DNA of 64,000 nt from NCBI GenBank assembly GCA_963847445.1, contig CAWJZV010000027.1, positions 64,001 through 128,000 on the forward strand, written 5' to 3'. This document shows, piece after piece, positions 5,485 through 55,630 of this stretch. The position numbers and the translations under genes are program-made. Positions within the stretch are counted from its first letter, which is position 1. Each line of letters opens with the position of its first letter. Source of the DNA: an uncultured delta proteobacterium (GTDB lineage Bacteria > Desulfobacterota > Binatia > UBA9968). The notes beneath the pieces were generated by a model. The model ran no database searches, had not been told where the DNA came from, and saw nothing but the letters and a program-made list of their open reading frames with translations.

Positions 5485-5621
5485 GATGGGCAGGAGGCGT
5501 GAGTTGCCGAGGAGCGCATAGGAAACCAGCGGATTCTCAGCTAGCGCCCAACGTAAACTTGTGAACCTTCACGAGGTCCAATATTATAAATACATAGTAT
5601 TGACCCGTGGGAGAGAGAGTC

Positions 5622-5819: not shown

Positions 5820-5820
5820 A

Positions 5821-8087: not shown

Positions 8088-8091
8088 AAAC

Positions 8092-24800: not shown

Positions 24801-26084
24801 TTCGGCTGTTCCAAGAATTGCAGGAACGCACGCGCGAACTGGTGGAATCGGTCGAGGAATTAAAAGCGCTCGGCGAAGTCGGTCAGGCGGTGAGTTCCAG
24901 CCTCGATCTCGAAACGGTGCTTGAAACTATTGTCGCCCGCGCCGTCGATCTGTCGGGAACCGATTGCGGCGTCATCTATGAATATGACGAGGAAGAGCAA
25001 GAGTTTAATTTGCGCGCCAGCCATCAAGATGGAAACCGAGGCGGTCGAAGGCGCTGAGAGCGGCGCGCATACGGCTGGGCGAAGGGTCGGCGGGTCAGGC
25101 GGCGCGTGACTCGCGCGCCGGTGCAGATCCCGGACACGTTGGATACAGCAGGAGCGTACGGCTTCGCGGATCAGACCACTGCTCACCCGCCTCGGTTACC
25201 GCTCGCTTCTGACGGTGCCGCTGTTGCGCGAGCAGCAAATTATGGGAGGTCTGACGGTCTGGCGGCGGCAGGCCGGCGAGTTCGAGCCGGAAGTGATTAA
25301 CCTGCTGCAAACCTTCGCGACGCAATCGGCTCTGGCGATCCACAACGCGCGGCTGTTCCGCGAGATCGGCGACAAAAACCGCGAGATCGAAGCGGCGAAC
25401 CGGCACAAGTCGGAATTTCTCGCCAACGTGTCGCATGAGCTGCGCACGCCGCTCAACGCCATCATCGGTTTCTCGGAAGTGCTGCTGGAAAAGTACTTCG
25501 GCGAGTTGAACGACAAGCAAAATGAATACGTCGACGACATTCTTTCCTCCGGGCGCCATCTGCTGTCGCTGATCAACGACATCCTCGATCTGTCCAAGGT
25601 CGAGGCTGGACGCATGGAATTGGAGGTGACGACGTTTCACCTGCCGGACGCCATCGACAACGCCCTGTTACTGGTGCGCGAGCGCGCCAGCCGGCACGGC
25701 ATTAAACTCGACCAGGCGATCGACGAGCGCTTGGGCGAGTTCACCGGCGACGAGCGCAAGATCAAGCAGATCCTCGTCAATCTACTGACCAACGCGGTGA
25801 AGTTCACGCCCGAGGGCGGCCAGGTGAAGGTCGAGGCGAGGTTGGGCGACAGCGCGGTGATCCTGTCCGTCGTCGACACCGGCATCGGCATCGCCAAGGA
25901 AGACCAGGAAGCGATCTTCGAAGAATTCCGCCAAGCCAGCGGCAACTACGCGCAGAAGCGCGAAGGCACGGGGCTGGGATTGACGCTGACGAAACGTTTC
26001 GTCGAAATGCACGGCGGCAAAATCTGGGTCGAGAGCGAAGTGGGCAAAGGCAGCACTTTTACATTTACGCTGCCGATCGGATAA
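15836..26084 (+). CDS. Giant soluble sensor histidine kinase: 18 GAF domains + HisKA + HATPase_c (many indels)
   Basis: 18 QAVIAIEN-type GAF C-terminal helices counted; [15 protein letters not shown]-box, [22 protein letters not shown]; no TM helix seen. Confidence 0.85.
19092..22670 (+). repeat. Four near-identical ~500-600 bp GAF modules inside the kinase gene
   Basis: gaactcggcgagcgcaacgcggaattgcgcgagg starts at 19092, 20116, 21151, 22166 (spacing 1024, 1035, 1015 bp). Confidence 0.92.
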
Positions 26085-27014: not shown

Positions 27015-27709
27015 ATTCGAAGCACGAATTTCGAAATCCGAAACAAACAAGCTCAAAATTCGAATTCTGAAGGACCAAACTCGAAACAAATCCAATGAAA
27101 TGCGAAACAGAATCAATATTCAAAATGACATGGAAGTGACGACCAGAACGTATGAAAGAAAATCGCATCGGCCTGTACGATCTTGAAGACCGAACGTTTG
27201 ATTTTGCCAAGACGATACGAGCTTGTACCAGGCAGTTGCCGAAAACGTTGTCGAATTTGGAAGATATCAAGCAAGTAGTGCGTTCGTCCGGTTCTGTTGG
27301 AGCGAACTACATTGAGGCGAATGAGTCGTTGAGTAAGAAGGACTTCCTGATGAGAGTCAAGATTTGCCGCAAGGAAGCCAAGGAAAGCCGGTATTGGTTG
27401 CGATTGATCGACTCAGGGGACGACGCGGCAATTAAGAAGCAATGTGATCTCCTCGTCCAGGAAGCTACCGAGCTAACCAACATTTTTGGAGCAATTTTGC
27501 GTAAGAGCGAATAGCCATGGAATGCAAATTCGAAGCACGAAAGAAGCCCCGCGGACCGAAAGCAACCCGCGGATCGAAACAAATCCAATCAAGGGAGAAA
27601 CACAAAATCCCAAACGAGCATTTTCGGATTCCCGGTTTTGGATTTTCATAGTTTGAGACTTATTTGACTGCGTTTGTTTCGGATTTCGTGCTTCGGATTT
27701 CGAATTTAC
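27011..27709. mobile_element. ~700 bp inverted-repeat-bounded cassette carrying a four-helix-bundle gene
   Basis: 38 bp imperfect inverted repeats at 27011-27048 and 27672-27709 built from CGAA-containing heptamers; AT-richer than flanks; mobility is inferred. Confidence 0.5.
27152..27514 (+). CDS. Four helix bundle protein (TIGR02436 / 23S rRNA IVP / Avd-like fold)
   Basis: DLEDRTFDFA, QVVRSSGSVGANYIEANE, ICRKEAKESRYWL. Confidence 0.9.
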   Translation: MKENRIGLYDLEDRTFDFAKTIRACTRQLPKTLSNLEDIKQVVRSSGSVGANYIEANESLSKKDFLMRVKICRKEAKESRYWLRLIDSGDDAAIKKQCDLLVQEATELTNIFGAILRKSE

Positions 27710-27713
27710 TGGA

Positions 27714-28829
27714 ATGAATACACCCGCTAAAATTCTTGTCGTCGACGACACGCCGCGCAATGTGAAGCTGTTGGCCGATTTGCTGGGCGTGAAGGGCTAT
27801 GCGGTGGTGACGGCTGCGTCGGGACGGGAGGCGTTGCTGAAGATCGACGCAGAGCCACCGGATTTAGTTCTTTTAGACGTCGTCATGCCGGAGATGAGCG
27901 GCTATGAAGTTTGCCTGAAGATTCGCGATAATCCGGCGACGGCGATGCTGCCGGTGGTCATGGTCACGGCGCTCGATCCCAGTGTCGAACGGGTGAAAGG
28001 CATCGACGCCGGCGCGGACGATTTTCTCACCAAGCCGATCAATCAATCGGAGCTGCTGGCGCGGGTGAAGTCGCTGCTGCGCGTCAAAGAATTGCATGAC
28101 ATAGTCCAGGTGCAGGCGGCGCAATTGGCTGAGTGGAACAAGACGCTGGAATTGCGCGTTCAGACACAGGTGGAACAACTGGAACGATTGGAACGGCTCA
28201 AACGATTCTTCTCGCCGCAACTCGCCGAATTGATTGTCGCGGGCGGCGCGGACGATCCGCTCAAGACGCACCGGCGCGATGTGACGGTGGTGTTCGTCGA
28301 TCTGCGCGGCTTCACGGGGTTCGCCGAAACCGCCGAGCCCGAGGAAGTGATGGGCGTGCTGCGCGAATATCATGCGGCCATGGGCCAACTGATCATGGAG
28401 CATGAGGGCACGCTCGAGTGTTTCATCGGCGATGGCATGATGGTGATTTTCAACGATCCGGTGCCGGTGCCTAATCCGCAAGAGCGCGCGGTCCGCATGG
28501 CGCTGGCGATGCGCGGGCGCTTCGAGGAACTGTCCCGGGCGTGGAGCAAGCTCGGTTATGACATCGGTATGGGCGTCGGCATCGCTCAGGGTTACGCGAC
28601 CATCGGCGCCATCGGCTTCGAGGGGCGTTGGGACTACGGCTCCATCGGCACGGTTTGTAACCTGGCTTCGCGCCTATGCGGCGAGGCCAAGCCGGGGCAG
28701 ATTTTGCTTCCGCAACGGCTGCTCGCGAGCATCGCCGATCTCGCCGAGGTCGAACCCGTCGGTGAGTTGTCATTGAAGGGTTTTCAGCGCGCGGTTGTTG
28801 CTTACAACGTGCTGGGGCTCAAGGAATAG
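27714..28829 (+). CDS. Receiver domain + class III nucleotide cyclase
   Basis: ILVVDD, LLDVVMP, ADDFLTKP; VFVDLRGFT, IGDG, NLASRL. Confidence 0.93.
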   Translation: MNTPAKILVVDDTPRNVKLLADLLGVKGYAVVTAASGREALLKIDAEPPDLVLLDVVMPEMSGYEVCLKIRDNPATAMLPVVMVTALDPSVERVKGIDAGADDFLTKPINQSELLARVKSLLRVKELHDIVQVQAAQLAEWNKTLELRVQTQVEQLERLERLKRFFSPQLAELIVAGGADDPLKTHRRDVTVVFVDLRGFTGFAETAEPEEVMGVLREYHAAMGQLIMEHEGTLECFIGDGMMVIFNDPVPVPNPQERAVRMALAMRGRFEELSRAWSKLGYDIGMGVGIAQGYATIGAIGFEGRWDYGSIGTVCNLASRLCGEAKPGQILLPQRLLASIADLAEVEPVGELSLKGFQRAVVAYNVLGLKE

Positions 28830-32627: not shown

Positions 32628-34041
32628 TCAAGCGAGCTGGTCGAGCTGCCAAGTGGTCCGCAGGCCATTCTGAATTTGCTTGATGATGATGAACGCTTCT
32701 TTTAGATGGCGCCGTTCCAAAACCGATAAATCTTTCAAGCGCACGCTGTGATCGACGGGCGTCTTGGCGGCCAACGCCGCGAGTTGCGCGCGCAAACGGA
32801 GCTCAAACAGGGATGGAAAGATTTCCGCCAGGGCGGTGGCGTCGCCGGCGCTCAGCACAAGACCGGACTCTCTGGCGACATCGAGCCGTGCCAACGTCGA
32901 GCGTTCACGCGAGCCCGCGGCCAAGGCGGCGACCCGGGCCAGTCCGACGATCGGCGCTATGGCGCTTTTTTTAAGATCGACTTTGCCGTTGTCGGTGCGC
33001 AAGCGATTGAAGAATCCCAAAGGCGGATAAAAATCCAGCGCGCCGCGCGCCAGATGGGACAGAAACCGTCGCTCGGATTTTGCAGCGCCGATGATTTCCT
33101 CCAATGTATCCAGCGCAAGCGTTCCTGCGACCGAGCGAAAATCGAAAAAGATCGCCGCGTCGAGCAGCGCTTGCGGCTTGGGCAGGCTGTATCCAGTCGG
33201 TAAACAGCTCTCGCCATGCCGCGAGCGGCTTGCACCAACGAGTTGCCATGAAGCCGCCGGCGCAAGGCGGGAACCCGGCTTCGATCAAAGCATCGACGAC
33301 TTGCTTGGCCAGAGCGGCGAAGTAAGCGCGCGCGGTGTCGGAGTCTTCCTGGTAAATTAACGCATTGTCCTGATCGGTGAGCAGCGTCTGTTCGAGCCGT
33401 CCCTCGGAGCCGAAGACGATCCAAGCAAATGGTGTTGGCGCGGTGCCGAGTTTTTCGACCGTAAGCGCGACCAAACGTTTGACCAGTGCGTCGTTGAGGC
33501 TGGAGACGATCTTGCTGATATGGATCGCCGCCAGGCCGCTGTCGAAGAGCGTATGCACCAAGGTGGCGATCTCTTCGGCGTAATTCACCGCGTGCGAGTT
33601 CTGCCAGTTTTCAATGACGCCGCGCAAATACAGTGGATTGCGGCCCTGATGGAGCAGCAGATCGGTGGCGCTGACTACGCCAATGATCTTTCCTTCTTCA
33701 ACCACCGGTAGATGATGGATATTTTCATCGAGCATGAGACGCAGCGCGGCGAATACCGGCGCGCCGCAATCGATGGTTACGAGCGGGCGTGACAGCACTT
33801 GGGTCACGGGAGTGTCCGGCCCAAGTCCCGGGGCGAGGACCCGACCGCGCAGATCGCGGTCGGTGACGATGCCCGGCGGCTCGCTGGCGATGAGCATGGA
33901 GCCGACGCGGGCGTTCTGCATGGCTTGCGCGGCTTGTTTGACGCTCACGCTGGCGTCAACGAACAGCGGCGCGCGCTTGATCAGATGCTTGACCGGCAGT
34001 GCCAGGTGGGAGTCGGTGATGGTTCTGTCAGAGGTCGCCAT
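32628..34041 (-). CDS. CBS-pair + DUF294 nucleotidyltransferase-like protein (one indel near 33190)
   Basis: GIVTDRDLR, IHHLPVV, GSEGRLEQTLLTDQDNAL, VDLKK..IAPIV. Confidence 0.88.
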
Positions 34042-34147
34042 GGGATGCGCGGTTGCCTGATTTTACCAGCGCTGATGAGTGATGTTTTCAGTCTAGGATG
34101 AAATGGTTTCCGATAGGTAATATAGCGCAATTGCCGGTTTGGCAGAT

Positions 34148-34426: not shown

Positions 34427-34488
34427 GTTACTGGCCGTCCACGGCGGCGAGATAAGAGATGATCTCGCCGCCGTGGGTAAGTCTTATT

Positions 34489-36429
34489 TTAGTGGGCGCC
34501 TGCCGGCTGCTCGCGTCCCAGCGGATCGCCGGTGGTCGCTTGGCCGCTCTTCGGGTAGCGCACACTGGCGACCAGTTCTTGGACTTCTTTGGGCGGCGCT
34601 GCGGTCATGAGCGAGACGATCCAGATGACCAGGAAGCCCACCGGTAATCCGAAGACCGCCGAGGCGATGGTCTGGGTGCCGAACCAAGATACGTCCGTAG
34701 AAGCGGCTGCCGATCATGTAATAGGCGGTGACAGCCAGACCAGCGATCATGCCCCAACAGGCGCCGGCGCGTTGGCGCGCTTCCACCAGATGCCCATGAC
34801 CAGTGCCGGGAAAAACGACGCCGCCGCGAGGCTGAACGCCCAGGCGACTAATTCGACGATGATCGCAACTCGGAAGGTCGCAACCTAGGCGGCGATTAGA
34901 GCGGTAACGACCAGCAGGATCTTCGTGATCGTTAGTCGCTTGGTCAGCGAGCCTTGCGGATCGATCACGTTGTAATACAAGTCATGTGAGAAATCGCGTT
35001 GGCGATGGTCAGCAACAAACCGTCAGCGGTGGAAAGCGCTGCCGCCAGACCGCCGGCCATGACCAGACCGGTGATGACGAACGGTAGTCCGGCGACCTCA
35101 GGCATCGATAAAACGACGAAATCGGTCGACTTGACCACGAAGTCCGCCCACTGGACGATGCCGTCGCCGTTCTTGTCGACGACTTCGAAGAGCCCGGCCG
35201 GTTGCCAGAGCGTGATCCAGCGCGGCAATTCGGCGATTTTGGTGCCGACCAATTTGACGTAGATCGTGAAACGGGCGAAGGCCGCATAGGCCGGCGCGGT
35301 AAAGTAAAGCAAGAAAGATAAAAAACAGCGACCATGCCACTGAGACGCGCGCTTGGCGAACCGACGGCGTCGTGTAGTAGCGCGTCAGAATATGCGGCAA
35401 TCCCGCGGTGCCGACCATCAAGCAAAAGGTCAGCGCGAGGAAAGTTCCACATGCCGACGCCGCTTGGCACGGTCAAGTATCGGCCAATTGTCGCGTCGTC
35501 GCTCGCTGCCGGGCGCGGTGGCCTGCTGGGTGGCGGTTTTCGCCGCCGCCTTAAGTTTGTCGGTTTCCGCGTCGGTGAGATTGCCCATCTTTGATCTTTG
35601 CATTGGCCTCGTCGGCGTCCTTCTTCCAAAGAGCGCGCGCGTTTCCTTTTCCTTCGCATCACGCGTGATCTCGATCGCCTTACTATTGTTGATTTGCAGA
35701 TAGCCGTCCGTAAATCAATTCAGGAATCGGAATCGAGAAAAGCTGATACGAAAGATACACCACGGGCACCAGATACGAAACGATCAAGATGATGTACTGA
35801 GCAACCTGTGTCCAGGTGACCGACTTCATGCCGCCGAGCACGGAGCAGAACAGCACGCCAATCAGACCGACAAAGACGCCGATTGGAAAAATCCAAGCCG
35901 ATGAAGCGCGAGACGATCAAGCCGACACCGGTCACCTGGGCGATCAAGATACGTAAAAGAGCAGGCGATGGCGGCGACGACGCCGATGATGCGCGCAAGG
36001 TTGCCACCGTAGCGGGCGCCAAGGAAGTCGGGAATCGTGTAGGCGCCGAATTGACGAAGGTAGGGACCTAGGAAGACGGCGAGCAAAAGATAGCCGCCGG
36101 TCCAACCCATCACGTATGCAAGACCGGCGAATCCTTGGGCGGAAAGCGCGCCGGCCATCGATATGAAACGAAGCGGCCGACATCCAGTCCGAGCCCGTGG
36201 CCATGCCGTTATACACCGCCGGCACGCCGCGGCCGGCGACATAGTATTGATCCGGGTTCGACGTGCGCGTGATGATGCCGATGACGATGTAGATGCCCAG
36301 CGACAGGCCCATGAATATCCAGCCGATCCATTGCGGCGACAGGCCGAGAAATTGCTCTGCGAGGCCGATCAAAATCGTGACGCCGAGAAAACAGACGGTG
36401 TACAGTCCGAAGATTTTTCCTAGACTCAT
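34489..36429 (-). CDS. Sodium:solute symporter, ActP-like (VC_2705 subfamily), many indels
   Basis: YYVAGRGVP..NGMATGSDWMSAASF, GWTGGY, GTAGLPHIL, AGGLAAALSTADGLLL. Confidence 0.85.
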
Positions 36430-36432
36430 GGC

Positions 36433-36702
36433 TCAGCCCTCCTCTCGGATGCCGTATTTGAGATCCAGCTTGTTCATCAGGTAGGCGTACACGGCGATCT
36501 CGATGACGAAGATCGCCAAAGAGCCCTGCGCGGCCATGTAGTAGCCGAGGGGAAATCCGAGAAAGGAAAATTGATTGAGGCTGGCGGCCCAAAGACCCGA
36601 GATCAGGTAAGTGACGACGAACCAAACGATCAGCAGGATGGTTGTCAGTCTTACGTTGTAACGCCAATAGGATTTCTTTTGTTCCTCCGAGAGATCAGCC
36701 AT
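36433..36702 (-). CDS. DUF4212 small subunit of solute:sodium symporter
   Basis: YWRYN, GFPLGYYMAAQGS, MNKLD; GGAGG RBS. Confidence 0.88.
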   Translation of the reverse strand: MADLSEEQKKSYWRYNVRLTTILLIVWFVVTYLISGLWAASLNQFSFLGFPLGYYMAAQGSLAIFVIEIAVYAYLMNKLDLKYGIREEG

Positions 36703-37055
36703 ACGCACCTCCTCGATGCATTTTTGAATCTGTCGCTGCGAGAGAAATCGTCGATCCTCGATGTAATTCCTTCGAGTGGAGCTCAGCGTTACTCGAAACG
36801 AGCGCTACTCGGGGCGGGTTATGTTACCGCGTCTCATGGGTGGCGCTTGTGAATCGCCACCGGACACATGAGAGCAACCGGTAACGCGGGCTTGTAACAA
36901 AGGCAGAGTTCATGTGTCAAGCGGTATTTTAGGGCGGTCAAATTTTACTTGCGCATCTCAGCCGATTTGGACTATAGACCGAGCTAGCCAGCCTGGGTGC
37001 GAGTTTGTCGGGCGAACAATTACCGCATGGTTTGCTATGCGGCGGACACTAACTG

Positions 37056-39316
37056 TTGGCGGGGACGACGCACTTGTTAAGCTTGCTTAAGGTCGCCGCC
37101 TTTGGCCTATTACTAGGGCTAATGGGAAACATCGCAAGTGTTTACGATGAGGTTCGTGAGCTTGAGGAAAATGTCGGCCTGGGGTTGCTCTTTCAATTAA
37201 GAGGCGCCACAAAAGCTCCAGACGACGCGGTCGTCGTCGCTATCGACCGCGAATCTTCTGAACGCCTCAAGCTCCCGAATAATCCTGATCGCTGGCCGCG
37301 CTCCCTGCATGCGCGCTTGATCGAAGCACTCAACCGAGCCGGCGCCCGCGTGATAGTTTTCGATCTCTATTTTGCCGAGTCCAGGTCGCCAGAGGAGGAC
37401 GTGGCGCTCGCCGAACGCGATAAAGAAGGCGGGAAATGTTGTGCTCGCCGAACAACTGAGGTCGAAAGAAGTTACTTCAGCCGTCGATGCTACAGTAGAC
37501 AACGCCGGGCATAAGATTGTCGAAGCATTAAAACCGATCGAATCGTTCTCGCAATCCGCCTTCGCCACAGCGCCGTTCGTGTTGCCGCGCATGCCGGTGC
37601 GGGTGAGCCAGTATTGGACTTTTCAAACCGATGCGGGAGATACACCGACGTTCCCGGTTCTGGCGCTGCAGCTCTATACGCTCCAAGCCTATCCAGATTT
37701 CCGAGCATTGATGGAAAAGGCGAACCCGAAACACGCAGCGCTGCTGCCGCGCGACGCAAGTTCGGCGATCGAATCGACCGGAGCGTCAAAATTCACCAGG
37801 AACTTGAGACAAGTCTTTCGCAGCGATTCTGACCTCGGCGACGCGTTGGCGCATGTCGCTGTTGGCTCCGGCAGCGATCACAGACCGGTAAGTGCGATGG
37901 TCCATCTGTACACCGGTGCGAATCGCCAATACCTAAATTTCTACGGCCCGCCCCGCTCGGTGACCACCCTGCCTTATTATCAAGCCTTGCAGCTCGGCAA
38001 CGATGGCGCCAACGGCGCGCCCATGGACCTGCGCGGAAAAGCGGTTTTCGTCGGACTATCGGAAAACCTGCTCGCCGAGAGACAAGACAGCTTCCATACG
38101 GTTTTTTCCACAACCACAGGCGTTTTTATCAGTGGCGTCGAAATCGCCGCCACGGCATTTTTGAATCTATTGACGAGCACCTCGGTCAAACCGCTCCGCC
38201 CAAGTTATCAAATCGCTACGCTTCTGCTTTGGGGCATGATCGTGGGGCTTATTTGCCGCTTGGCGCCTCCTCTCTCCGCGGCTGTAGCGGTCATTTTGTG
38301 CAGTACCGCTTATGTGTTCGCTGCCAGCTACCAGTTCCGCGCCAACGCCATATGGTTTCCGATCGTTGTGCCGTTGTTTTTCCAGGCGCCTGTCGGCTAT
38401 GTCGGCGCGCTCTTGTGGAACTTTTTCGAGATCAACAGAGAACGCAAGAGAATCACACAGGGCGCTCGGCTATTATGTGCCGGAAGAAGTTGTCACCCGG
38501 GTGGCTAGAGACATGATCGACATCCGTCGATACGGCCAAACCGTTTACGGCACATGTTTATTTGCCGATGTTGCCGGCTACACGCCGGTTTCCGAATCGA
38601 TGACGCCGCGCGACTTGAGCGAGCTGATGCACAATTATCTTGAGGCGGCATTCGAACAGATTCATAAGCAAGGCGGTCTGGTTGTCGAGCTCAAAGGCGA
38701 CTCGATCCTGGCCATTTGGAAAGGGAGCTTGGGCGAGCTGGTGTTCCGGCAAAAGGCCTGCGAAGCCGCTCTCGACATGGCCGAAGCGGTACGCCGCTTC
38801 AATCAATCCACCGACGCCGCGCTCAAACTCCCTACTCGGATTAGCCTTCATGCCGGTCCGATCTTTCTCGGCAACATCGGCGCCGGAACCCACTACGAAT
38901 ATGGCGTGACCGGCGATACGGTCACCACGGCGGCGCGATTGGACGGCTTAAATAAATACCTGGGGAGCAACATTCTGGTATCCGATGAAGTGATGCGCGA
39001 CCTCGATAAATTCCTGACTCGGCCGGTCGGAGTATTTCTCTTGAAAGGCAAGTCCCAACCGATCGTGGCTCATGAATTGATCTGCCGCGCCGGCGACTGC
39101 GCCGACTGGCAAAAAAAAGCTTGCGAGATATTTGCCGAGGCGCGGCAGGCTTTCGAGCGCCGCCTCTGGGACGAGGCCGATGAGAAATTCATGCAGTCGG
39201 ACCAATTGTTTAATGGCGATGGTGTCTCGCGGTTTTATCGTCAGCTTTGTGCCCAGTATCGCTCGAGCCCGCCACCGGAAAACTGGAACGGCACGATAGC
39301 GATGGCTGAAAAATGA
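37056..39316 (+). CDS. CHASE2-domain membrane class III nucleotide cyclase (two indels)
   Basis: VVVAID..WPRSLHARLI..VIVFDL, GVEI, three TM segments, LFADVAGYT, KGDS, TAARL, LKGK. Confidence 0.87.
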
Positions 39317-39344
39317 TCGCCGTCGTATTGATGTAAGAAATCGC

Positions 39345-42300
39345 ATGACTGAAAGCAGGCGAATCGTGAAAACGCGCAATCAGAAGTTGGTTGTATTTAG
39401 CTTTGCCGGATTAGCGGTATCGTTGCTAGTCACTGGCGGGTTGTCGGCCTCGATCACCTGCGATCGTTGGGTCGCCAGAATGGTTTCCACCCAAGGTCAC
39501 GTCGAGGTCAGCCGCGCCGGCCAGACGCAGTGGCAGCGGGCTACGCTCAACGACACCTACTGCGCCGGCGACCGCGTCCAGGTGGGCGAAAGAAGCCGCG
39601 CCGACATTGCGCTCGTCAACCGCCCGATCATTCGCTTGGAGCAGAACACGACGATTACTTTGGCGGGGCGTCCGGGAGGAAAGACGCTCGGTCATACAAT
39701 TGCTGCGCGGCGCGCTCTATTTCTTCAGCCGTCTATCGGGCCATCTGGAAGTGTCTACGCCGTTTGTCAACGCCGGCGTCGAAGGCACCGAAGGGCTTGG
39801 TCAAAGTCGAATCCGATAGCACTTTGATAACCATCTTCGAAGGCCAGGTCATCGCTTCGAACCCCGCCGGCAGTCTCATTCTCACGAGCGGCCAATCGGC
39901 GATCGCGCGCCAAGGCAGCGCGCCGGTTCTTGACCACCATCGTGCGGCCGCGCGACGCGGTGCAATGGGCGCTCTATTATCCGCCGGTCTTCGATTTTCG
40001 TCCTGAGACTTTTCAAGACCCAACCTGGCAGGCGGTCGCGGCAAACTCGATCGCGGCCTACAAGCAGGGCGATTTTGCCGCGGCCTTCGAAAGCATTAAA
40101 GGCGTGCCGGATACCATCGCAGACCCGAGCTTCTTCAGCTATCGCGCGGCGCTGTTGTTGGCAGTGGGGCGCAGCGACGAAGCGCGCCGAGATGTCGAGC
40201 GGGCGTTGAGTTTGCGTGCCAACGACAGCGCGGCGTTGGCGCTTCAGGCGATTATCGCCGTGGCGCAAAATGACAAAGACAAAGCGCTCGAGGCCGGGCA
40301 AAAAGCGGTTACGGCAAATCCAAAGTCGAGCGCGGCGCTGATCGCGTTGTCCTACGCGCAGCAGGCCCAGTTCGATCTCACCGGCGCGCGCGCCAGTTTG
40401 CAGCAGGCCGTCGCAGTCAATCCCAACGACGCGCTTGCCTGGGCGCGGCTGGCCGAGTTGCATATGTCCTTCGCCGACCTCGACGACGCCCTCGAAGCCG
40501 CGCAAAAAGCTGCGGCCATCGACCCGAATCTGTCCAGAACCCAGACGGTTTTAGGATTCGCTTATCTGACGCAGGTCAAGACTACCGAGTCGAAGAAGGC
40601 GTTCGAACGGGCAATCGAACTCGATCAAGGTGACCCGTTGCCGCGACTGGGTCTTGGCCTCGCGCTCATCCGAGAGGGCGATCTCGACGCCGGCCGCGGC
40701 GAACTCGATATCGCCGTGAGTCTGGATCCGGATAATTCACTGCTGCGCAGCTATCTCGGCAAAGCCTACTACGAAGAAAAGTTGGACAAGCAATCGGCGG
40801 ATCAGTACGAAATGGCAAAGACCTTGGATCCCAAAGATCCGACGCCCTATTTTTACGACGCCATCCGCAAACAGACCACCAACCGGCCGGTCGAAGCGTT
40901 GCAAGACATGCAGAAAGCTATCGAGCTCAACGATAACCGCGCGGTCTACCGTTCGCGCCTGCGAACTCGATTCCGATCTTCGCCGCTCGCAGCGCCAGCC
41001 AAGCGCGAATCTACAGCGATCTCGGCTTCCAGCAATTGGCATTGGTCGAAGGCTGGAAATCGGTCAACACCGATCCGACGAATTTCTCGGCGCATCGGTT
41101 TCTTGGCCGACTCCTATTCTATCCTGCCGCGCCACGAGATCGCCAGGGTCAGCGAACTGCTGCAATCGCAATTGCTGCAGCCACTCAACATGACGCCGAT
41201 TCAGCCGCATCTGGCGGAAAGCAATCTGTTTCTGATCAGCGCTGGCGGTCCAGCGGCTCTCTCGTTCAACGAGTTCAATCCGTTGTTTAACCGCAACGGG
41301 ATTAATTTTCAGACGACGGGTCTCGCCGGCGAGAATAACACCTACGCTGGTGAAGGCGTGCTCTCGGGAATCTATCAGAAAGCGGCCTTTAGTCTCGGTG
41401 GATTTCACTTTCAGACGGACGGCTGGCGCAAGAACGCGGATCAAAAAGATACCATCGCGAATGCGTTTTTACAGTTGGAACTCTCGCCGCAGACGAGCAT
41501 TCAAGGCTGAAGTTCGACGCAGAGAAACTACACGCGGTGATCTTCAACAGAGGTTCTTTCCTGAAGACTTCTTCCCTGGCCTGACAGATAAAATCGACAG
41601 CTATTCGACTATGCGCCTTGGCGGACGTCACTCCTTTTCGCCAGATTCGATTATTCTCGGATCATTTCATGTTTCAAGATCGTCAGCAGAGGTCAAAAAA
41701 CGACTCGCCTTCGCCGCTGTTGATTCGCGGCGACTGCCTCAAAGCGCTTTGGCTTCGAGCTTCAACATCTGTTTCGCTCGCGTTATTTTAATCTCACGAG
41801 CGGAGTTGGATACTTTGATATCGATGGAGAATTACGGGCGACGGTGAAGGATCACTTCTTCCTCCGCCTTTCTTCGTGTAGCTACCACTGATCTTAGGTA
41901 TCCAGCACTTTAACGCTTATACCTATGCGAACATCAGCCTGTTGAACAATGTCACGATCACTGCGGGGGCAGTTTTGATTACTTGAATGGAGTGAACCTG
42001 CGGATTTTTCGGATGGAAGATGTGCATCAGTTCAACCCGAAATTCGGAATTACTTGGAATCCATTACCAAGCGACGACTGTTCGCGCGGCTGATTTCGGG
42101 TCGTTGAAGAGGACGCTGATCACGGACCAGACCCTCGAGCCGACCCAGGTTGCTGGCTTCAATCAGTTCTTATGATGATCTAAACGGAACAAAAGCTTGG
42201 CGCTACGGCGCGGCTATCGATCAGAAATTTACGAAAGATCTGTTTGGAGGCGTGGAATTTTCCAAGCGGGATTAAAAATTCCACTTGATAGATACTACAG

Positions 42301-42766
42301 TCCAGCCCGGAGACGATCCACGATTTCGACGGCAAAGAGTATCTTGGTCGCACCTACTTATTCTGGACACCCCATCCATGGTTGGCGCTCAGAACGGAAT
42401 ATCAGTATGAGGGATTTAGAAATGACTCAGGGCTCGGGCGAACCGACGGAAGATAAATACTCATCGTGTTCCACTGGGCCTAAATTTTTTTCACCCTTCG
42501 GGATTAAGCGCTGTCGCTGGCAGCCACTACTACAATCAAGGCGGCAGGTTTGTTGGACCTTCGGGCAACTGTTGAGTCGGGTACGACGATTTCTGGACAG
42601 TCGATGCGGCGATCAATTACCGTCTGCCGAAGCGATATGGATTCATCACGATTGGAGCGACTAATCTTTTCGACAAAAAATTCAAGTATTTTGAGGTGGA
42701 TCGTGACAACCCGCGTATTCAGCCGGACCGGATGATTTTTTTCGAATTACCCTGGCATTGCCATAA
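39345..42766 (+). CDS. FecR domain + TPR repeats + TonB-dependent-receptor-like beta-barrel (3' third heavily frameshifted)
   Basis: Signal peptide; FecR motifs GDRVQVG, STPFVNAGVEGT, IFEGQV; ~8 TPRs; barrel-type fragments QTLEPTQVAGFNQF, DAAINYRLPKRYG, NLFDKKF. Confidence 0.75.
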
Positions 42767-42853
42767 GACAAAACTACGCCTACGGAAAGCGAATATGCCC
42801 AGCGGGAAGCGCGATCCGGTCACTTGACTACAAGCTGCGTGCCGATGGAAGAG

Positions 42854-43096
42854 CTAACTGCAGGGCACCTGTACTTTAAAATCACCTATTACCATAAAGC
42901 ACTTTTTAGGTGATTGTGTGATTTCCGTCTCAAATAAAGTATCGACCGCTTTAAGCCCATAGGGACAAGTCTCGAAGTCCTTTCGTTCCGAAGTGGTTAA
43001 AGGGGTGACTTCGACGTCCTTGCTAATTGCTTCTACGCCGACGATTTTTTTCTCACGAATCACCAGTTTGATTTCAACATCGCCTGGTAGTCCCAT
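42854..43096 (-). CDS. Small protein A, 80 aa, with C-terminal CFMVIGDFKVQVPCS
   Basis: AAGGAGG RBS before ATG 43096; paralog immediately upstream. Confidence 0.75.
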   Translation of the reverse strand: MGLPGDVEIKLVIREKKIVGVEAISKDVEVTPLTTSERKDFETCPYGLKAVDTLFETEITQSPKKCFMVIGDFKVQVPCS

Positions 43097-43230
43097 AAAA
43101 AATTCCTCCTTTATTATTGAGTTACGCTGACATAACCACCAGAAGCAACCGCCTGCAAAAATCAGATAGATTCGACCGACCTCGGCACCCGGTCCCAAGG
43201 CGGATCGGCGTTGAGCGACTACGGACAGCG

Positions 43231-43504
43231 CTAACCACAAGGTACCTGTACTTTAAAACCACCGATGATCATATAGCACTTCGTGGCCGTACCAAGTGTT
43301 GCGTCAGGATCTGGTGTCTCATATATCGTCTCGAGTCGGTCTGAGACCATGTAAGCTACGTCTAAATTTTTTTTTCTCGCTGGATTCCAACTCGCTGACC
43401 TGTACATCTGCAGAATTATCTTGGTGTCTCTCCACATTGGAAATATATCCGTCTTTAAATGTGACTATGAGTTTAACGACTTGCGCTACTGCTGGGTCGA
43501 CCAT
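43231..43504 (-). CDS. Small protein B, ~90 aa, with C-terminal CYMIIGGFKVQVPCG (one indel near 43335)
   Basis: AAGGAGG RBS before ATG 43504; ORFs 43319-43504 and 43231-43437 join to match protein A. Confidence 0.7.
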
Positions 43505-43836
43505 TGTAAATTCCTCCTTTTTGTTACATGAACGAAATTAACGACAATCGCCTAATGATTGATCAGAACCGACAACGGAAGCATAGCCAACAAAAACCTA
43601 CGAATCCTTGACATGGCCGCGACCGGGCCTGGCTTCGATAGACCGCATCGCTGTGACTTTGAAATTCACGGCCAACTCATACTTCCGCGGACTCTAGTCA
43701 CTAGCAGTCTTTTAAGTCAAGGCCAATTTTCGTGCGTATGCTTTGCGGCGGTTGACGGTCAATCCTTACCTGGCGTAGGTTAAGGCTCGGCCAGTCGCCG
43801 CAAATTTTGCAGAGCAAAAGGAGCACGAAGCCAGCC

Positions 43837-44718
43837 ATGGACAACCGCCGCTACGACTATTCGCCGATCATTCGCCGGCCCAAGATCGAATGGCCTAATC
43901 ATGGCCGTGTCGCTTTGTGGGTGGCGCCGAATATCGAATATTTTCATTACAACATGCCGATCCGCGGCACGGGCAGCAGTCATTGGCCCGACGTGCCGGG
44001 CTATAGCTTGCGCGATTACGGCGCGCGCGTCGGCGTCTATCGGATCATGGACGTGCTCGATAAGTTCAACATCCGCGCCAGCGTGCTGTTGAACGCCGAG
44101 GTCTGCGAGAAGCATCCGCCGATCATCGAAGAGGGCAATAAGCGCAACTGGGAATGGCTTGGCCACGGCCTGACCAACAGCGTCTCGATGCTCGACTATG
44201 CGCCGGAAGAGGAGCGGGCGATCATTCACAACGTCAAAGAGATGATCACCAAGGCCACCGGCAAAGCGCCAAAAGGTTGGCTTGGCCCCGGCCTGGGCGA
44301 AACTCACGACACGCCGGATCATCTGGCCGCCGAGGGGTTTGAATATGTCTGCGACTGGGGCAATGACGAACAGCCGACGGCGATGCGGGTGAAGAGCGGA
44401 CGCATGGTGGTCGTGCCCTACGAGCTGGGGGTCAACGACATCCGTGTCTTTCAGCGTGAGAATCACACGCCGGAGCAGTACTTCCGGATGGTCTGCGATC
44501 ACTTCGACACGCTCTACAAAGACAGCGTCTCGGGCGGCCGGGTGTTATGCTTGCCGCTCCACCCGTTCGTCATCGGCATGCCGTTCCGGATTAAATATTT
44601 GGAAATGGCGCTGGAGTATATGTGTTCGCACGATGGCGTGTGGCGCACGACCGGATGGGAGATCGCCGAGTGGTACTACAAGAACTACTATAAGGATCCG
44701 GGGCGGTTTGAGGGATGA
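43837..44718 (+). CDS. Polysaccharide deacetylase family protein (PuuE-like)
   Basis: IEWPN..VAPNIEYF, RDYGARVG, GHG, GWLGPG, LPLHPF. Confidence 0.88.
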   Translation: MDNRRYDYSPIIRRPKIEWPNHGRVALWVAPNIEYFHYNMPIRGTGSSHWPDVPGYSLRDYGARVGVYRIMDVLDKFNIRASVLLNAEVCEKHPPIIEEGNKRNWEWLGHGLTNSVSMLDYAPEEERAIIHNVKEMITKATGKAPKGWLGPGLGETHDTPDHLAAEGFEYVCDWGNDEQPTAMRVKSGRMVVVPYELGVNDIRVFQRENHTPEQYFRMVCDHFDTLYKDSVSGGRVLCLPLHPFVIGMPFRIKYLEMALEYMCSHDGVWRTTGWEIAEWYYKNYYKDPGRFEG

Positions 44719-48504: not shown

Positions 48505-48602
48505 TTCCATCGGATCTTTGATTGACCACAAAAGAATAATTGTCGCGCTTCCCGCCGCCGGCCGAATTGCTAGTGCGGCGCTTTTCCTGCTAAACCGATG
48601 CT

Positions 48603-49935
48603 GTGGAATCCACTGCTGAGTTAGCCCGCAACACCTCCAAGCCTAAAATATTCTACGGTTGGTACATCGTTACCGTCGGCTTTCTCGCCAACGTGGCATC
48701 GTCCTTCGCGCTGGCGAGCACGATGAGTATCTTCTTGAAGCCGCTTACCGCTGATTTGGGAATATCCCGTGGAGTTTTTTCATTACTGCGCTCCGGCGAA
48801 GGTATCATTGCCGCATGCATCGCGCCGCTGAGTCGGCACCTTGGTCGACCGTTACGGCGGGCGCTGGTTGATGGTGATCGGCACCGGCATCGTCGCGGTG
48901 GGTTATTTTCTCTTGAGTCATATCGATACCTTTGCTCAATTCGCGGCGATCCGCTTGACGCTGGTGACCCTGGGCGATTCGATGATGGGCTACATGGTGG
49001 TCAACGTCATCATCGCCCAGTGGTTCGTGCGCCGGCGCGGCCGGGCGCTGGCGATCTCGAGCATGGGCGTGGGTTTCGCCAAAGTCTGCATGCCGGTGGT
49101 GGCGGCTTCGCTGATTCTCTGGCTCGGCTGGCGCCAGACCTGGTTCGTTTTCGGCTTGATGACGTTGGGGCTGTTGGTGCTGCCGGCGCTGTTGATCATC
49201 CGGCGCTCGCCGGAGGCGATGGGATTGCTGCCAGACGGCGCGACGGCACCAGTGGCCGGCGCTGACGCGAGCGCGCATCAGTCCGCGGCGCGCATGGCTG
49301 AGACCGGGGCGCAGGACGCGACCTGGACGCGTGCCGAAGCGGCGCGGACGACGGCGTTCTGGCTCCTGGTGATTACCTTTGGCATATCCAGTATCGGTGT
49401 GACTGGCCTCAATCTGCATGTTTATTCCTACGTCACTGACACCGGCTACTCGGCCGTGGTCGCGGCCACGGTGATGAGCATCATCGCGTCGATGCAGCTG
49501 GCTTCACCTTTGGGCTGGGGACTTCTCGCCGAGAGAATCGGCGTGCGCTATGCCGCGACCTTGCGCTTTGTCATCCAGGGCTGCGGATTGGCGCTGGCGA
49601 TACTGACCGGTAATCTGCTCTGCCTCTATGCCGGTTTTTTACTCTACGGCATCGGTCTGGGCGGCAACATGGTGTTGCCGGACATGCTCTGGGCCGATTA
49701 TTTCGGGCGCCAGTCCCTCGGTAAGATTCGCGGTTTAGGTTTGCTGATCTCGCATTTTCTCGCCGCCATCGGCCCGCCGTTTTTCGGCTTTCTCTTCGAT
49801 ATCACCGGCGGCTACGGGCTGTCGTTTGCGATCTTTGGCGCCGTGCTGGCGACTTCGGCGCTGCTCAGTCTCATGTTGAAGCCGCCCGGCAGACTCATTG
49901 AACAATGGAGTATTGGAGTAGTGGAGTGTTGGTAG
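48603..49935 (+). CDS. MFS transporter (one indel near 48830)
   Basis: IFYGWYIV, LVDRYGGR, WFVRRRGRALA, DYFGRQSLG. Confidence 0.88.
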
Positions 49936-52723: not shown

Positions 52724-52832
52724 ATAAATTCCGTTCATGGGTTCAAGGTTCAAAAGTTCAAAGGTTTCGGATGGCGTGAGCGCTTACCGGTGTTGACGCA
52801 TTCGACCAGCCGCGCAGGTGTCTAGACTACTG

Positions 52833-54308
52833 ATGGATGCAACAACCAACAAACCGGCATCGCCGTCACGCAACCGCTGGTGGTCGTTATCCGTGGCCTC
52901 GATCGCGACGCTGATCGTCACCGCCGACACCGGGCAGTTGAGCATCGCGCTGCCGCTGATCATCACTGAGTTCGGCGCCGACCTGACATTAGCGAGCTGG
53001 ATCGCGCTCGTCTACGCATTGATCACCGCGTCGCTTTATTTGCCCTGCGGCCGCATGGCGGATCTGCTCGGCATCGGCAATCTGTTTCTCGCCGGGTTTA
53101 TTTTGTATGCCGTGAGTTCCATCGCGGCGGGCTCGTCGCAGAGCGCCGTGCAGTTGGTGATCTTTCGCGCCCTGCAGGCGGCCGGCAGCGCGCTGATCAT
53201 GGCGAACAATTTTGCCTTGGTGACGGCGTTGTTTCCGCCCGAAGAGCGCGGCCGGGCGATGGGCATCGCCGGCGGCGCGATCTCGGCGATCGGTTACACC
53301 ATGGGTCCGGTGATCGGCGGTCTGCTGACTCATGGCTTGGGCTGGCGCTCGAATTTTTTTGTTTCTTCTGTTCTCGCCGTTGGCGGTTTCGCTGCCGCGC
53401 GGGTCCTATTGCCGCCGGAAAGTTTCAAACCCTCAGTTGCCAAAGGGGCGAAAAAAGAGCCTTTCGATTTGATCGGCGCGCTGTCCTTCGCCTGCTGCAT
53501 TTCGCTGATACTATTCGGACTCGCCACGGCGCAGAAGGGCGGTTGGCAATCGCCGCTGGTGGTGGTTTCTTTGATCGCCGGCTTTGCGCTGCTGTTTTTC
53601 TTCATCCATTGGGAGCGGCGCGCGGGCGCACCCCTCCTCGATCTGGCGCTGTTTCGCATCCCCGCTTTTACCGTTGGCAACATGGCGCGCTGGATCAGTT
53701 TTATCACCATGAGCGTGAGCATCTTGCTGATGCCCTTTTACTTGCAGTTCGCGCTCGGTCTGGACCCGCTGCGCGCCGGATTCCTGGTCGCGCCGACACC
53801 CCTGGCGATGGCGCTTTTGGCGCCGCTGACCGGTTGGATGTCGGAACGGTTTGCCGCCGAACGGCTGTGCGCCGCGGGATTGGCGGTGAGCGGCTGCGCA
53901 TTTGTGCTCATGAGTCTGCTGTCGCCGATGTCCACGTCCGTGCAGATCGTTGTTTGCCTCGGACTGGTCGGCATCGGCATGGGACTTTTTCAAACGCCGA
54001 ACAACAATCTGCTGATGACCGCCGTGCCGCGCCACCGTCTCGGTGTCGGTTCGGCGTTTCTGTCGATCGTGCGCAGCTTGGGGTACTCCATCGGTACGGC
54101 GCTGGCGACGACGATTGTCGGCGCGCAATTGACGGCGACCGGGGCATCGTCGTTGCAGTCGTTTGCCAAGCAGGTGGGGACGGCCGGCAGTGGTGTCGGA
54201 TTAGCTGCTTTTATGCGCGGCTTTTATTTCGCGTGTTTGACGGCGGCCGTGCTGTGTTTTCTCGGCGCGCTAATCAGCTCGGTGCGGGTGTCGCGGGAAG
54301 CGCGCTAA
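52833..54308 (+). CDS. DHA2-family (14 TM) MFS transporter
   Basis: IALPLI, GRMADLLG, FRALQAAG, FPPEERGRAMG, GPVIGG, FQTPNN. Confidence 0.9.
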   Translation: MDATTNKPASPSRNRWWSLSVASIATLIVTADTGQLSIALPLIITEFGADLTLASWIALVYALITASLYLPCGRMADLLGIGNLFLAGFILYAVSSIAAGSSQSAVQLVIFRALQAAGSALIMANNFALVTALFPPEERGRAMGIAGGAISAIGYTMGPVIGGLLTHGLGWRSNFFVSSVLAVGGFAAARVLLPPESFKPSVAKGAKKEPFDLIGALSFACCISLILFGLATAQKGGWQSPLVVVSLIAGFALLFFFIHWERRAGAPLLDLALFRIPAFTVGNMARWISFITMSVSILLMPFYLQFALGLDPLRAGFLVAPTPLAMALLAPLTGWMSERFAAERLCAAGLAVSGCAFVLMSLLSPMSTSVQIVVCLGLVGIGMGLFQTPNNNLLMTAVPRHRLGVGSAFLSIVRSLGYSIGTALATTIVGAQLTATGASSLQSFAKQVGTAGSGVGLAAFMRGFYFACLTAAVLCFLGALISSVRVSREAR

Positions 54309-54322
54309 AGGGTCGCCCGCGG

Positions 54323-55630
54323 TCAAAGCTTGATTCGCGCATAACTGCGCCCGGCGATTGGCCGTGAAATTTGCCCAAGCTTTCGCAGTAACAGGAAGAA
54401 CAGCCCGGTCAAAATTATTTCCAACAGCAGCGGGATCAATTTGATGTTGGCGAATGCCAACATTGGCGCGAGAAACCCGCTGACGCAAAGCCAGCCAAGC
54501 ATGGCGAGCCAGCGCAGCTCTTTGCGGCCAGCCCAGGGCCCGGACTTGGTCAGGAGCAGTGCGCCTGCGGGCAGGAGCACGCAGAGATCGTAATAGAGCA
54601 AGTGGGGCAGAGTAATCGCCGACAAGCAAATGCCGATGGTCAGGGCGATGGCCAGGCCGGGTAAACTATCCAGTTGTGCTTTGGCAAGTTTAATCGCGTG
54701 GCCAAATCCAATGACCCAGAGCATGGCGGCGCCAAAATAGAGCGGCCATTTCAACGCCGCCCGTTGCGCCACCGGGAATAAAATCATCAAGTTGGCTGGT
54801 AAGCCGGTGATGAGATGGCTCGGAATACCTTGCTGGCCGCTCGAATACATGGCGTCGCTAACCTGGTGGCTCAACAGCCATTGTTGGGTCAGGTCCGGGC
54901 CGAATGCCAACAAGGTAACGACCAAAAGCCCGATGACCCCGGAGCTCATGCCGATGAACGTCCAATAGCGCCCGCTTACTAGCAGTACCAGCGAGACGAA
55001 CGCCGCGGCGAGAAAGTATTGCGGCTTGAGCAGCAGGATCGACCAAATCACACCCGCGAGCAGCGGCCGATTTTTCACCAACAGGCTGAAACCCAGGCAC
55101 AGTGGTAGCAAGCCAAACGTCAGCCCCAATTGACCGGCCCATAGGGTGAGAAAGATCGGCAGGAATAGGAAGGCCAAAAAAAACATTTCACTGGTCTTCG
55201 CCCCTGTGAGCGCTGCGAGTTCGCGGCAGCACCAGAGCAGCGCCAGCGCTGAAATCGCTTGCCACAGCAGCAACGAAAAGTTGGGATTTAACCAGCCGAA
55301 GGGGGCGAAAAAACCGGCGACCAACGGAATGTACATGTAGGCACCGGTGGAGTCTTTGGGCAGCGTGGGCAGATACTCATGGGCGGCTTTGTCGAACCGT
55401 GAGTTGACGAAAGTCTTGGCGCTGGGATCGGGATAAAGTTCGCTCGCCCGCCCCTCGCTCACCAGACGGCCGGCAACATGAAAGGTCATGATGAAGTCCG
55501 ATTCGTGAAACTGTTCGGGCTGAGAGAATAGGTTGTTGTCGATGAGAAAGATGCAGACCGCCAGGGTGAACGCCGTCGCCAGAAAAACGACCGCGCGGTA
55601 TGGTGTCGAGGCGGTGGTCCGGTCTGGCAT
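54323..55630 (-). CDS. GT87/DUF2029-like membrane glycosyltransferase
   Basis: Polytopic; SDF..F, YMYIP, GQ, LLLKPQ, PHLLYYDL. Confidence 0.8.
   Translation of the reverse strand: MPDRTTASTPYRAVVFLATAFTLAVCIFLIDNNLFSQPEQFHESDFIMTFHVAGRLVSEGRASELYPDPSAKTFVNSRFDKAAHEYLPTLPKDSTGAYMYIPLVAGFFAPFGWLNPNFSLLLWQAISALALLWCCRELAALTGAKTSEMFFLAFLFLPIFLTLWAGQLGLTFGLLPLCLGFSLLVKNRPLLAGVIWSILLLKPQYFLAAAFVSLVLLVSGRYWTFIGMSSGVIGLLVVTLLAFGPDLTQQWLLSHQVSDAMYSSGQQGIPSHLITGLPANLMILFPVAQRAALKWPLYFGAAMLWVIGFGHAIKLAKAQLDSLPGLAIALTIGICLSAITLPHLLYYDLCVLLPAGALLLTKSGPWAGRKELRWLAMLGWLCVSGFLAPMLAFANIKLIPLLLEIILTGLFFLLLRKLGQISRPIAGRSYARIKL

Follow-up and report, generated by a model that had tools for sequence, protein, structure and literature searches.

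Within a 64,000-nucleotide stretch of contig CAWJZV010000027.1 from an uncultured delta proteobacterium (hereafter the window), four adjacent genes at positions 37056-43504 were analyzed: a gene for a CHASE2 class-III nucleotide cyclase (gene 1), a gene for a large outer-membrane protein resembling the rhizobial receptor NsrA (gene 2), and two small paralogous genes, A and B, that face the large pair (Table 1). An earlier reading of this DNA, made from the sequence alone, had recognized and correctly located all four genes, but the frameshifts in them had gone unnoticed, and only small gene A is whole. For the cyclase, the coordinates, contents and the gap to the next gene were as described (the gap is exactly 28 bp, the stop codon ending at 39316 and the next ATG lying at 39345), but the cyclase is split by two frameshifts. 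Likewise, the gene of about 1,100 amino acids said to join a FecR domain, tetratricopeptide repeats (TPRs) and a barrel has these contents at this position, but it has no open frame; its longest open reading frames (ORFs) comprise 160, 179, 526, 165, and 155 amino acids, and those of the cyclase region comprise 152, 378, and 334 amino acids in an ORF list covering 37056-42800. Pfam searches located CHASE2 in 37053-37514 and 37357-38508, and Guanylate_cyc in 38288-39316, that is, in three frames. In gene 2, TPRs were found in a 559-amino acid stop-to-stop piece, and the 3' end gave a weak outer-membrane-barrel match (E value 0.0062, below the curated cut-off). No Pfam family was assigned to 12 of 17 fragments of the block, including all three small-protein fragments. 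Fragments 39300-39827 and 39401-40006 returned no Pfam family, FecR being missed there; both are 58-75% identical to the FecR region of the intact relative described below.

Table 1. Features of the four-gene block and frame-split genes elsewhere in the window (positions are those of the window unless stated otherwise).
Feature	Position	Strand	Remarks
Gene 1, CHASE2 class-III nucleotide cyclase, inner-membrane	37056..39316	+	~750 amino acids if read through; +1 frameshifts at ~37416 and ~38455
Gene 2, NsrA-like outer-membrane protein	39345..42763	+	Signal peptide, FecR domain, ~11 TPRs, TonB-dependent-transporter-like barrel; 14-18 frame-disrupting indels, densest in 41500-42450
Small gene A	42854..43096 with stop codon (42857-43096 without)	-	Intact, 80 amino acids, leaderless; ends in C-x12-C-S
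Small gene B, paralogue of A	43231..43504 with stop codon (43504-43234 without)	-	+1 frameshift at ~43336, after residues HGLRP
Sigma-70-like promoter of the B-then-A operon	43691..43720	-	TTGACT, 18 nt, TAGAGT; leader ~185 nt
Direct repeat of the A and B 3' ends	42850-42904 and 43227-43281; in L001, 9831-9905 and 10196-10270		Window, 55 nt (82%); L001, 75 nt (91%)
Frame-split genes outside the block	8060-10066, 16265-26081, 32631-34062, 34487-36694, 48594-49932, 52797-54364		Pfam scan

In a scan of species-representative genomes based on an alignment of small-protein homologues, 47 stretches fit a pattern and one locus was confirmed, in a metagenome-assembled genome (MAG) of Syntrophobacteraceae (locus L001). 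The same four genes are found there in the same order and orientation as in the window, and all of them are intact. The large pair consists of a 755-amino acid CHASE2-cyclase gene and, 20 bp on, a 1,134-amino acid gene with a FecR domain, TPRs and the C-terminal part, so that a CHASE2 class-III cyclase gene lies next to the receptor gene in both loci. Facing this pair are an 80-amino acid A-type gene and an 86-amino acid B-type gene (L001 9618-9878); a further intact counterpart of B is cluster P0027. In frameshift-aware alignments, the window cyclase was 59% identical to its L001 counterpart over 737 codons with two frameshift events, and the window receptor gene was 74% identical over 1,108 matched codons with no in-frame stop. 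None of the eight ORFs flanking the L001 block has a match in the window, and the conserved unit is therefore exactly the four genes plus the region upstream of B.

The intact L001 receptor was used to characterize gene 2. It is an outer-membrane protein with a signal peptide and a FecR domain (PF04773, E value 4.6e-12; that of NsrA, 2.3e-15), followed by a central TPR array and an NsrA-homologous C-terminal barrel, and its Pfam make-up is the same as that of NsrA. By BLASTP, the FecR/TPR part is 24% identical to NsrA (E value 3e-18), and the barrels align between L001 residues 761-1107 and NsrA residues 837-1179 (E value 3e-8). An AlphaFold2 model of the L001 receptor (mean predicted local distance difference test score [pLDDT] 67.6, predicted template modelling score [pTM] 0.45) shows, from N to C terminus, a signal helix, a beta-rich FecR domain (45-197), about 22 helices that form the TPRs (227-609), a linker whose modelling is poor (599-670), and the barrel, made up of about 23 strand elements (654-1131). 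In Foldseek searches, the barrel matched the TonB-dependent transporters FpvA, FauA, FhuE, FecA, and BtuB (E values 3e-11 to 5e-9, approximately 455-545 aligned columns), and the TPRs matched the OGT superhelix. TPR-barrel exopolysaccharide porins such as PgaA and BcsC were rejected as relatives, the NCBIfam score being 16 bits versus cut-offs of 367 and 858 and the barrel matching 22-strand transporters. The best-conserved part of the receptor lies between the TPRs and the barrel, at L001 residues 581-740 (window ~41100-41560), where tiles are 90-100% identical and many columns invariant; within it, residues 599-670 have a pLDDT below 50 despite the high conservation of the surrounding stretch. 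Residues 581-740 may be a plug-like or partner-binding segment. We also noted barrel-only proteins (P0165, P0177, P0190, and others) of 460-560 amino acids, about 50-55% identical to the L001 barrel and located on contigs of 47-580 kb; unless these are frameshift products, split or stand-alone forms of the barrel may exist.

The L001 cyclase is 27% identical to CyaK of Sinorhizobium meliloti (BLASTP, E value 5e-26). Its hydrophobic, transmembrane-like segments at residues 7-31 and 384-458 place residues 32-383, which hold CHASE2, outside the cytoplasm. Adenylate cyclases presumably carry Lys and Asp or Thr at two base-specifying positions. At these positions the window cyclase (domain 38513-39160) has Glu (in VVELKGD) and Gly (in YEYGVTGD). 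The corresponding residues of the L001 enzyme are Asp and Ala, and the first position of CyaK is occupied by Lys. By these residues, the window cyclase does not classify as an adenylate rather than a guanylate cyclase. Its nearest solved relative is the rhodopsin-guanylyl cyclase 6ao9 (E value 2.4e-14), and in the alignment the window Glu falls on the Glu of that enzyme and the window Gly on its Cys. With this Glu and Gly pair, the enzyme may make cGMP instead of cAMP. A second class-III cyclase gene, intact and fused to a response-regulator receiver domain, was observed at 27657-28826 of the window, just downstream of a GAF-repeat histidine kinase gene.

A tblastn search of plasmids with the L001 receptor returned 88 records, mostly Sinorhizobium/Ensifer megaplasmids, in which the annotated matches were named nsrA, "FecR domain-containing protein" or "TonB-dependent receptor". 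On pSymB, nsrA (SMb20775, 1,200 amino acids) is directly followed by cyaK (SMb20776). According to the available excerpts of publications, activation of CyaK and CyaD1/D2 by a protein-like plant signal depends on NsrA as the outer-membrane receptor (PMC7529298, PMC13001267), and a candidate for the NsrA-dependent cue is a non-ribosomal form of ribosomal protein uL2 (PMC7529298). The cascade proposed in the sequence-only reading, leading from barrel through TPR/FecR and CHASE2 to a cyclic nucleotide, matches this S. meliloti NsrA-CyaK pathway, which that reading did not name. In both systems, a receptor with FecR, TPR and C-terminal barrel parts (1,134 amino acids in L001 versus 1,200) stands beside a CHASE2 class-III cyclase, and homology extends over the whole length. 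However, identity is only about 24-27%, and CyaK has Lys at the first specificity position where the window cyclase has the Glu of its Glu/Gly pair. Genes 1 and 2 thus very probably constitute a distant NsrA/CyaK-type module. The receptor-cyclase trans-envelope cascade is in itself an already known kind of system, of which the window locus is a distant member.

Other known systems were also compared. In Campylobacterota, genes for a CHASE2 adenylate cyclase, a phosphodiesterase, an outer-membrane protein with a FecR domain and a protein with TPRs are clustered, and one common signalling pathway was proposed for them (PMC9239204). The likeness lies in a CHASE2 cyclase beside a FecR-domain outer-membrane protein and TPRs; there, however, the TPR gene is separate and a phosphodiesterase is present, whereas no phosphodiesterase gene adjoins the block in the window. 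The excerpts of that report describe no small proteins (PMC9239204). The "BiofilmReg" operon of Burkholderia joins a LysM-FecR periplasmic protein with a CHASE2 histidine kinase (PMC5192318), and so resembles the window locus in having a FecR-domain protein beside a CHASE2 sensor; in contrast, its output is a histidine kinase plus response regulator, and its FecR protein carries LysM and has neither barrel nor TPR. The FecA-FecR-FecI system (Escherichia coli fec locus, L003) shares a FecR-type domain and a barrel of the TonB-dependent-transporter type, FecA being among the matches of the modelled barrel. In the window system, however, FecR is fused to the barrel protein and not to an inner-membrane anti-sigma factor. 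FecA/FecR/FecI signalling through an extracytoplasmic function sigma factor was rejected, as the L001 receptor has neither Plug nor STN in Pfam and no sigma-70 family was found in the 130 window ORFs of at least 128 amino acids. Beside the S. meliloti locus, an ORF divergent from nsrA (5340-5885 of the pSymB stretch, L002) was observed to encode a PycTM domain (E value 3e-11), the membrane domain of Pycsar cyclic-pyrimidine effectors and an odd neighbor for a cyclase-linked receptor. In the available listings and excerpts of the literature found on CHASE2/FecR, on NsrA/CyaK and, from 2021 onward, on CHASE2, small proteins linked to such loci are not described. As far as that literature shows, the conserved pair of small Cys-hairpin proteins attached to the module is undescribed.

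As sequenced, the module in the window does not consist of intact, expressible genes. When the L001 proteins were tiled over the window, two frame changes were found in the cyclase and 14 in the receptor gene. By frameshift-aware alignment, the cyclase carries +1 events at 37416 and 38455, the receptor gene has 18 events (eleven +1, two +2, three -1, and two -2), B has one +1 event at 43336, and A has none. Thus, 21 indels occur in the block versus no in-frame stop across approximately 1,930 matched codons; 14 of the 21 are single-base insertions, and the indels are not limited to homopolymers. In comparison with L001, the ratio of nonsynonymous to synonymous substitution (dN/dS) of the cyclase was 0.10, that of the FecR/TPR part 0.08, and that of the barrel 0.13, and some 30-amino acid tiles were 100% identical to L001. 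Real bacterial pseudogenes generally lean to deletions and also gather stop codons. In some types of long-read consensus error, insertions make up the majority. Because insertions dominate, nonsense codons are absent and no relaxation of selection is seen, the approximately 21 indels in genes 1, 2, and B are probably in the main sequence errors, not real decay.

True decay in this organism would leave the cyclase, the receptor gene and B as pseudogenes, with A as the sole survivor. Consistent with this alternative, the frameshifts are clustered, with 18 in the 3.4 kb of the receptor gene and at least 10 of the indels within 41500-42450, many neighboring genes of 1-2.7 kb are intact, and selection might act separately on A, which alone is intact in the block. 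However, the lack of any in-frame stop among 21 indels, the predominance of single-base insertions, the low dN/dS and the tiles fully identical to L001 all argue against decay, as does the fact that unrelated genes across the window are split too, and we regard decay as unlikely. In the Pfam scan of the 130 window ORFs, other split genes were those for a DctM permease, a DUF294 protein, an SSF symporter, and two MFS transporters, and many genes were whole; the gene for the GAF-repeat histidine kinase, of about 10 kb, lies in at least 12 pieces. Such window-wide splitting points to a problem of the whole assembly or to a pseudogene-rich genome.

Small genes A and B were then considered. That the two genes facing the large pair are paralogues, as had been proposed, was borne out by tblastn, in which the L001 B protein matched gene A at 42% identity (E value 6e-17). 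Gene A has homologues in 19 other clusters of 79-91 amino acids (50-90% identity, 18 of the 19 at at least 70%), one of them named as originating from a Candidatus Binatia MAG. Among 1.84 billion representatives, a profile search gave 20 matches at an E value of at most 0.001, of which 18 were genuine clusters of 75-100 amino acids; P0037 and P0038 were discarded as tandem-repeat artefacts. Among the 20 aligned members, G47, C66, P78, and C79 are invariant, and the C-terminal pattern of the family is C-[YF]-x-[VI]-I-G-G-[FY]-K-V-x-V-P-C followed by no more than one residue, so that the C-x12-C ending noted earlier for both small proteins holds in 20 of 20. Gene A is preceded by a strong ribosome-binding site, AAAGGAGGAA, which is also present in B, and dN/dS relative to L001 was 0.24 for A and 0.29 for B. 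With these values, the strong ribosome-binding sites and the 18 genuine clusters, the small proteins are a real, rare, and unnamed family. We also observed a direct repeat formed by the A and B 3' ends, which runs on past the stop codon for about 10 nt in the window and 30 nt in L001 (Table 1). The two proteins are only about 42% alike overall. Either the Cys-hairpin end has evolved in concert, or a 3' element is conserved, as this repeat suggests.

In the AlphaFold2 model of A (pLDDT 66.9, pTM 0.54), three strands and a helix are seen, as well as a terminal hairpin with the two cysteines at its ends; residues 46-62, where the conserved YGLRP..T..ET motif is located, are modelled with low confidence. 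No family or fold match for the small proteins was found in Pfam or NCBIfam, or by features in the ESM Atlas; Foldseek of the A model against the PDB gave no match at an E value of at most 0.001, and the family profile had a single match among PDB sequences, at an E value of 0.48. Structural neighbors of a B-type member in the Atlas were TolA/TonB_2/STN clusters, at TM scores of 0.40-0.44 with a low-confidence model. A link to the FecA N-terminal signalling domain was rejected upon hhalign comparison of the family profile (probability 0.5%). Complex prediction of L001 receptor residues 230-1134 with small protein A, run without controls, scored 0.00 in two runs, which speaks neither for nor against binding.

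Neither a signal peptide nor a hydrophobic N-terminal segment was found in the 19 family members or in L001 A and B. In a Kyte-Doolittle scan (window of 12, starting at residues 1-24), the maximum mean was 0.38-1.62 in the 19 members, and L001 A and B had no segment reaching 1.6. A Sec- or Tat-secreted class of peptide signal was accordingly ruled out for A and B. This bears directly on the proposal of the sequence-only reading that the small genes encode the signal or effector. As peptide signals, A and B would be secreted, self-made peptides bound by the receptor barrel or TPRs and driving the CHASE2 cyclase in an autocrine or quorum-type loop. Several observations would suit this role: the small genes adjoin the module in every readable locus, NsrA-type receptors are published, in the excerpts available, as responding to a protein-like cue (PMC7529298), the invariant cysteine pair flanking the predicted hairpin would suit an extracellular disulfide, and the conserved residues 46-62, modelled as disordered, resemble a binding epitope. 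However, besides the missing signal peptide, no exporter or maturation gene adjoins the small genes in the window or in L001, all 80 amino acids of A are conserved with no leader-plus-core pattern, and the vast majority of receptor homologues have no small genes. The peptide-signal proposal is thus not supported and appears improbable.

A and B might also be precursors of ribosomally synthesized and post-translationally modified peptides (RiPPs), with a long leader and a short C-terminal core following Gly-Gly. An IGG motif does precede the last 8-9 residues in most members, and two tandem paralogous genes resemble precursor genes. Yet the Gly-Gly is replaced (by GD, AG, GK, GR, DG, or GA) in 7 of 20 aligned members, window A included, the supposed core is the most conserved part of the protein and not a variable one, and neither locus has a maturation enzyme, a peptidase-ABC exporter or a radical-SAM gene. 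A double-glycine-leader RiPP or bacteriocin class was rejected on these grounds, and RiPP precursors are very improbable altogether.

A putative sigma-70-like promoter (TTGAC followed by T or A, 18 nt, TAGAGT) lies upstream of B at the orthologous place in both loci (L001 9438-9467), in the sole strongly conserved block of the upstream alignment between the window and L001. No terminator-like site was found between B and A. Given the conserved promoter and the lack of such a site, B and A probably form a single operon that converges on the receptor gene. In folding, the gene B leaders did not surpass shuffled sequence (z +0.70 and +0.85), and no Rfam family was found in 36500-44000.

Base composition differs along the block. 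As had been claimed, the barrel region and the small genes are lower in G+C content than the conserved 5' part: 0.50 for the barrel and 0.44 for A and B, versus 0.60 for FecR/TPR and 0.574 for the whole window. In L001, the barrel has 0.525 and the small genes 0.51 and 0.48, and the whole block lies below the left flank (0.60-0.68). The explanation offered for this, namely a co-varying receptor/ligand pair, is not supported, as A and the barrel are the least diverged parts and A-type proteins remain 50-90% identical across the 19 clusters. Over 37083-43096, the synonymous difference relative to L001 decreases steadily, being 0.74 for the cyclase, 0.42-0.47 where the barrel reaches its 3' end, and 0.36 for A; amino acid identity is 80% for A, 64-91% for barrel segments, and 43-59% for B, the most diverged. 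A low-GC island with differing flanks fits transfer as a unit, and the synonymous gradient together with this island suggests that the block is of mosaic ancestry or has undergone internal recombination. The four genes were observed to be bracketed by an inverted repeat of 18 nt (17 of 18 complementary), at window 36331-36348 and 43786-43803; the rest of the 64 kb has no further copy (0.01 expected), and L001 lacks it. Since the SSF symporter gene contains its left arm, the repeat does not mark a simple insertion boundary.

In both loci with readable DNA, the window and L001, the receptor gene has the small genes next to its 3' end. We infer a third locus from P0006 (small protein) and P0041 (receptor, 85% identical to that of L001), which both come from a Candidatus Binatia MAG, each on a single contig of 4,931 bp. 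When small-protein matches were compared with 120 short barrel fragments, no contig size was held in common. The receptor family is far larger than the small-protein family: more than 5,120 matches at an E value of at most 1e-10 were obtained among 8,000 scored candidates (the best 120 at 62-98% identity), versus only about 20-40 small-protein clusters. The linkage to CHASE2/FecR-barrel pairs proposed earlier thus holds for the readable loci and the inferred one, but it is no general rule. From their distribution, the small genes appear to be a rare accessory that travels with the module in one narrow subclade and no general partner of CHASE2/FecR-barrel pairs.

One explanation of this pattern is that A and B are unrelated neighbors, for example small cytoplasmic redox or metal-binding proteins, that moved with the module as a low-GC block. 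They have their own promoter, are convergent and are not co-transcribed with the module, they are absent from most receptor loci, the block is low in G+C content in L001 also, as would fit transfer as a unit, and two cysteines per leaderless chain would suit a shared metal site. On the other hand, adjacency was kept although the synonymous sites of the cyclase are near saturation (proportion of synonymous difference, pS, 0.74) and both flanks differ, and the third, inferred locus is a contig of 4.9 kb with both genes. We consider unrelated neighbors a real possibility, if somewhat short of an even chance, and a functional tie of the small proteins to the module, judged from these sequence comparisons, slightly the likelier case.

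Taken together, these data lead us to favor, with some reservation, the interpretation that the four-gene block is an NsrA/CyaK-type module with a rare small-protein add-on, and that its indels are mainly sequence error. A number of points weigh against this interpretation. With respect to the module, the gene order is reversed relative to nsrA-cyaK, the cyclase here coming first. With respect to the indels, we infer error over decay from the sequence and from general expectations about pseudogenes, and error does not account for the clustering within 41500-42450. The remaining points concern the small proteins. Their linkage comprises two readable loci and one inferred, all in a single receptor subclade, and common descent or block transfer could explain the adjacency without shared function. 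Small Cys-loop genes are missing from the rhizobial locus, as not one of the 88 plasmid records with an NsrA homologue gave a small-protein match at an E value of at most 0.1, and the difference in family size means that most receptor loci must lack these genes. For proteins that have no signal peptide, the usual route to the periplasmic or surface parts of a receptor is closed. Upstream of B or of the cyclase, no conserved CRP or Clr box was found, so that a role of A and B as an output regulated by cyclic nucleotide cannot be argued, and the family and fold searches give no hint of a role.

In the mechanism that we propose, the receptor barrel would face outward, with the TPR and FecR domains hanging in the periplasm. 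By analogy with S. meliloti genetics, the signal would pass from the receptor through TPR/FecR to CHASE2 and the cyclase; the periplasmic CHASE2 domain of the inner-membrane cyclase would receive it and switch on cyclic-nucleotide synthesis in the cytoplasm. The separately promoted, convergent B-then-A operon would supply two leaderless paralogues of 80-86 amino acids, with the YGLRP motif and a predicted beta-hairpin flanked by two invariant cysteines. These may serve the receptor as a protein cue or a partner, or they may be a partner or an output in the cytoplasm. If they are functionally tied to the module, a cytoplasmic partner or output is a tentative possibility, and an extracellular cue that reaches the receptor without Sec export is a less likely one, its share divided about equally between a self-made exported signal and a lysis-released one; some other, unspecified role accounts for the rest. 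As leaderless release signals, A and B would be cytoplasmic, be freed upon lysis of kin cells, become disulfide-locked outside through C-x12-C, and be sensed via the NsrA-like receptor and the guanylyl-type CHASE2 cyclase. Such kin signalling would parallel S. meliloti, where uL2, a cytoplasmic ribosomal protein, is described in the available excerpts as the candidate NsrA-dependent cue in its non-ribosomal form (PMC7529298); even by this analogy, we regard it as a long shot.

For users of this assembly, a practical point is that many of its genes are frameshifted. The ligands of CHASE2 sensors are largely unknown, and NsrA-CyaK is the sole studied pathway from an outer-membrane receptor to a CHASE2 cyclase, with the recognition of its cue not understood. 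If the small proteins are unrelated to the module, the window locus simply adds another member to the NsrA-like family, which is very large. The guanylyl-type residues of its cyclase suggest that some CHASE2 cyclases make cGMP. A subclade of the module that carries two small conserved proteins provides a defined candidate partner, and, should the small proteins prove to be a lysis-released kin signal, they would be the first genetically encoded cognate ligand of the CHASE2/NsrA pathway.

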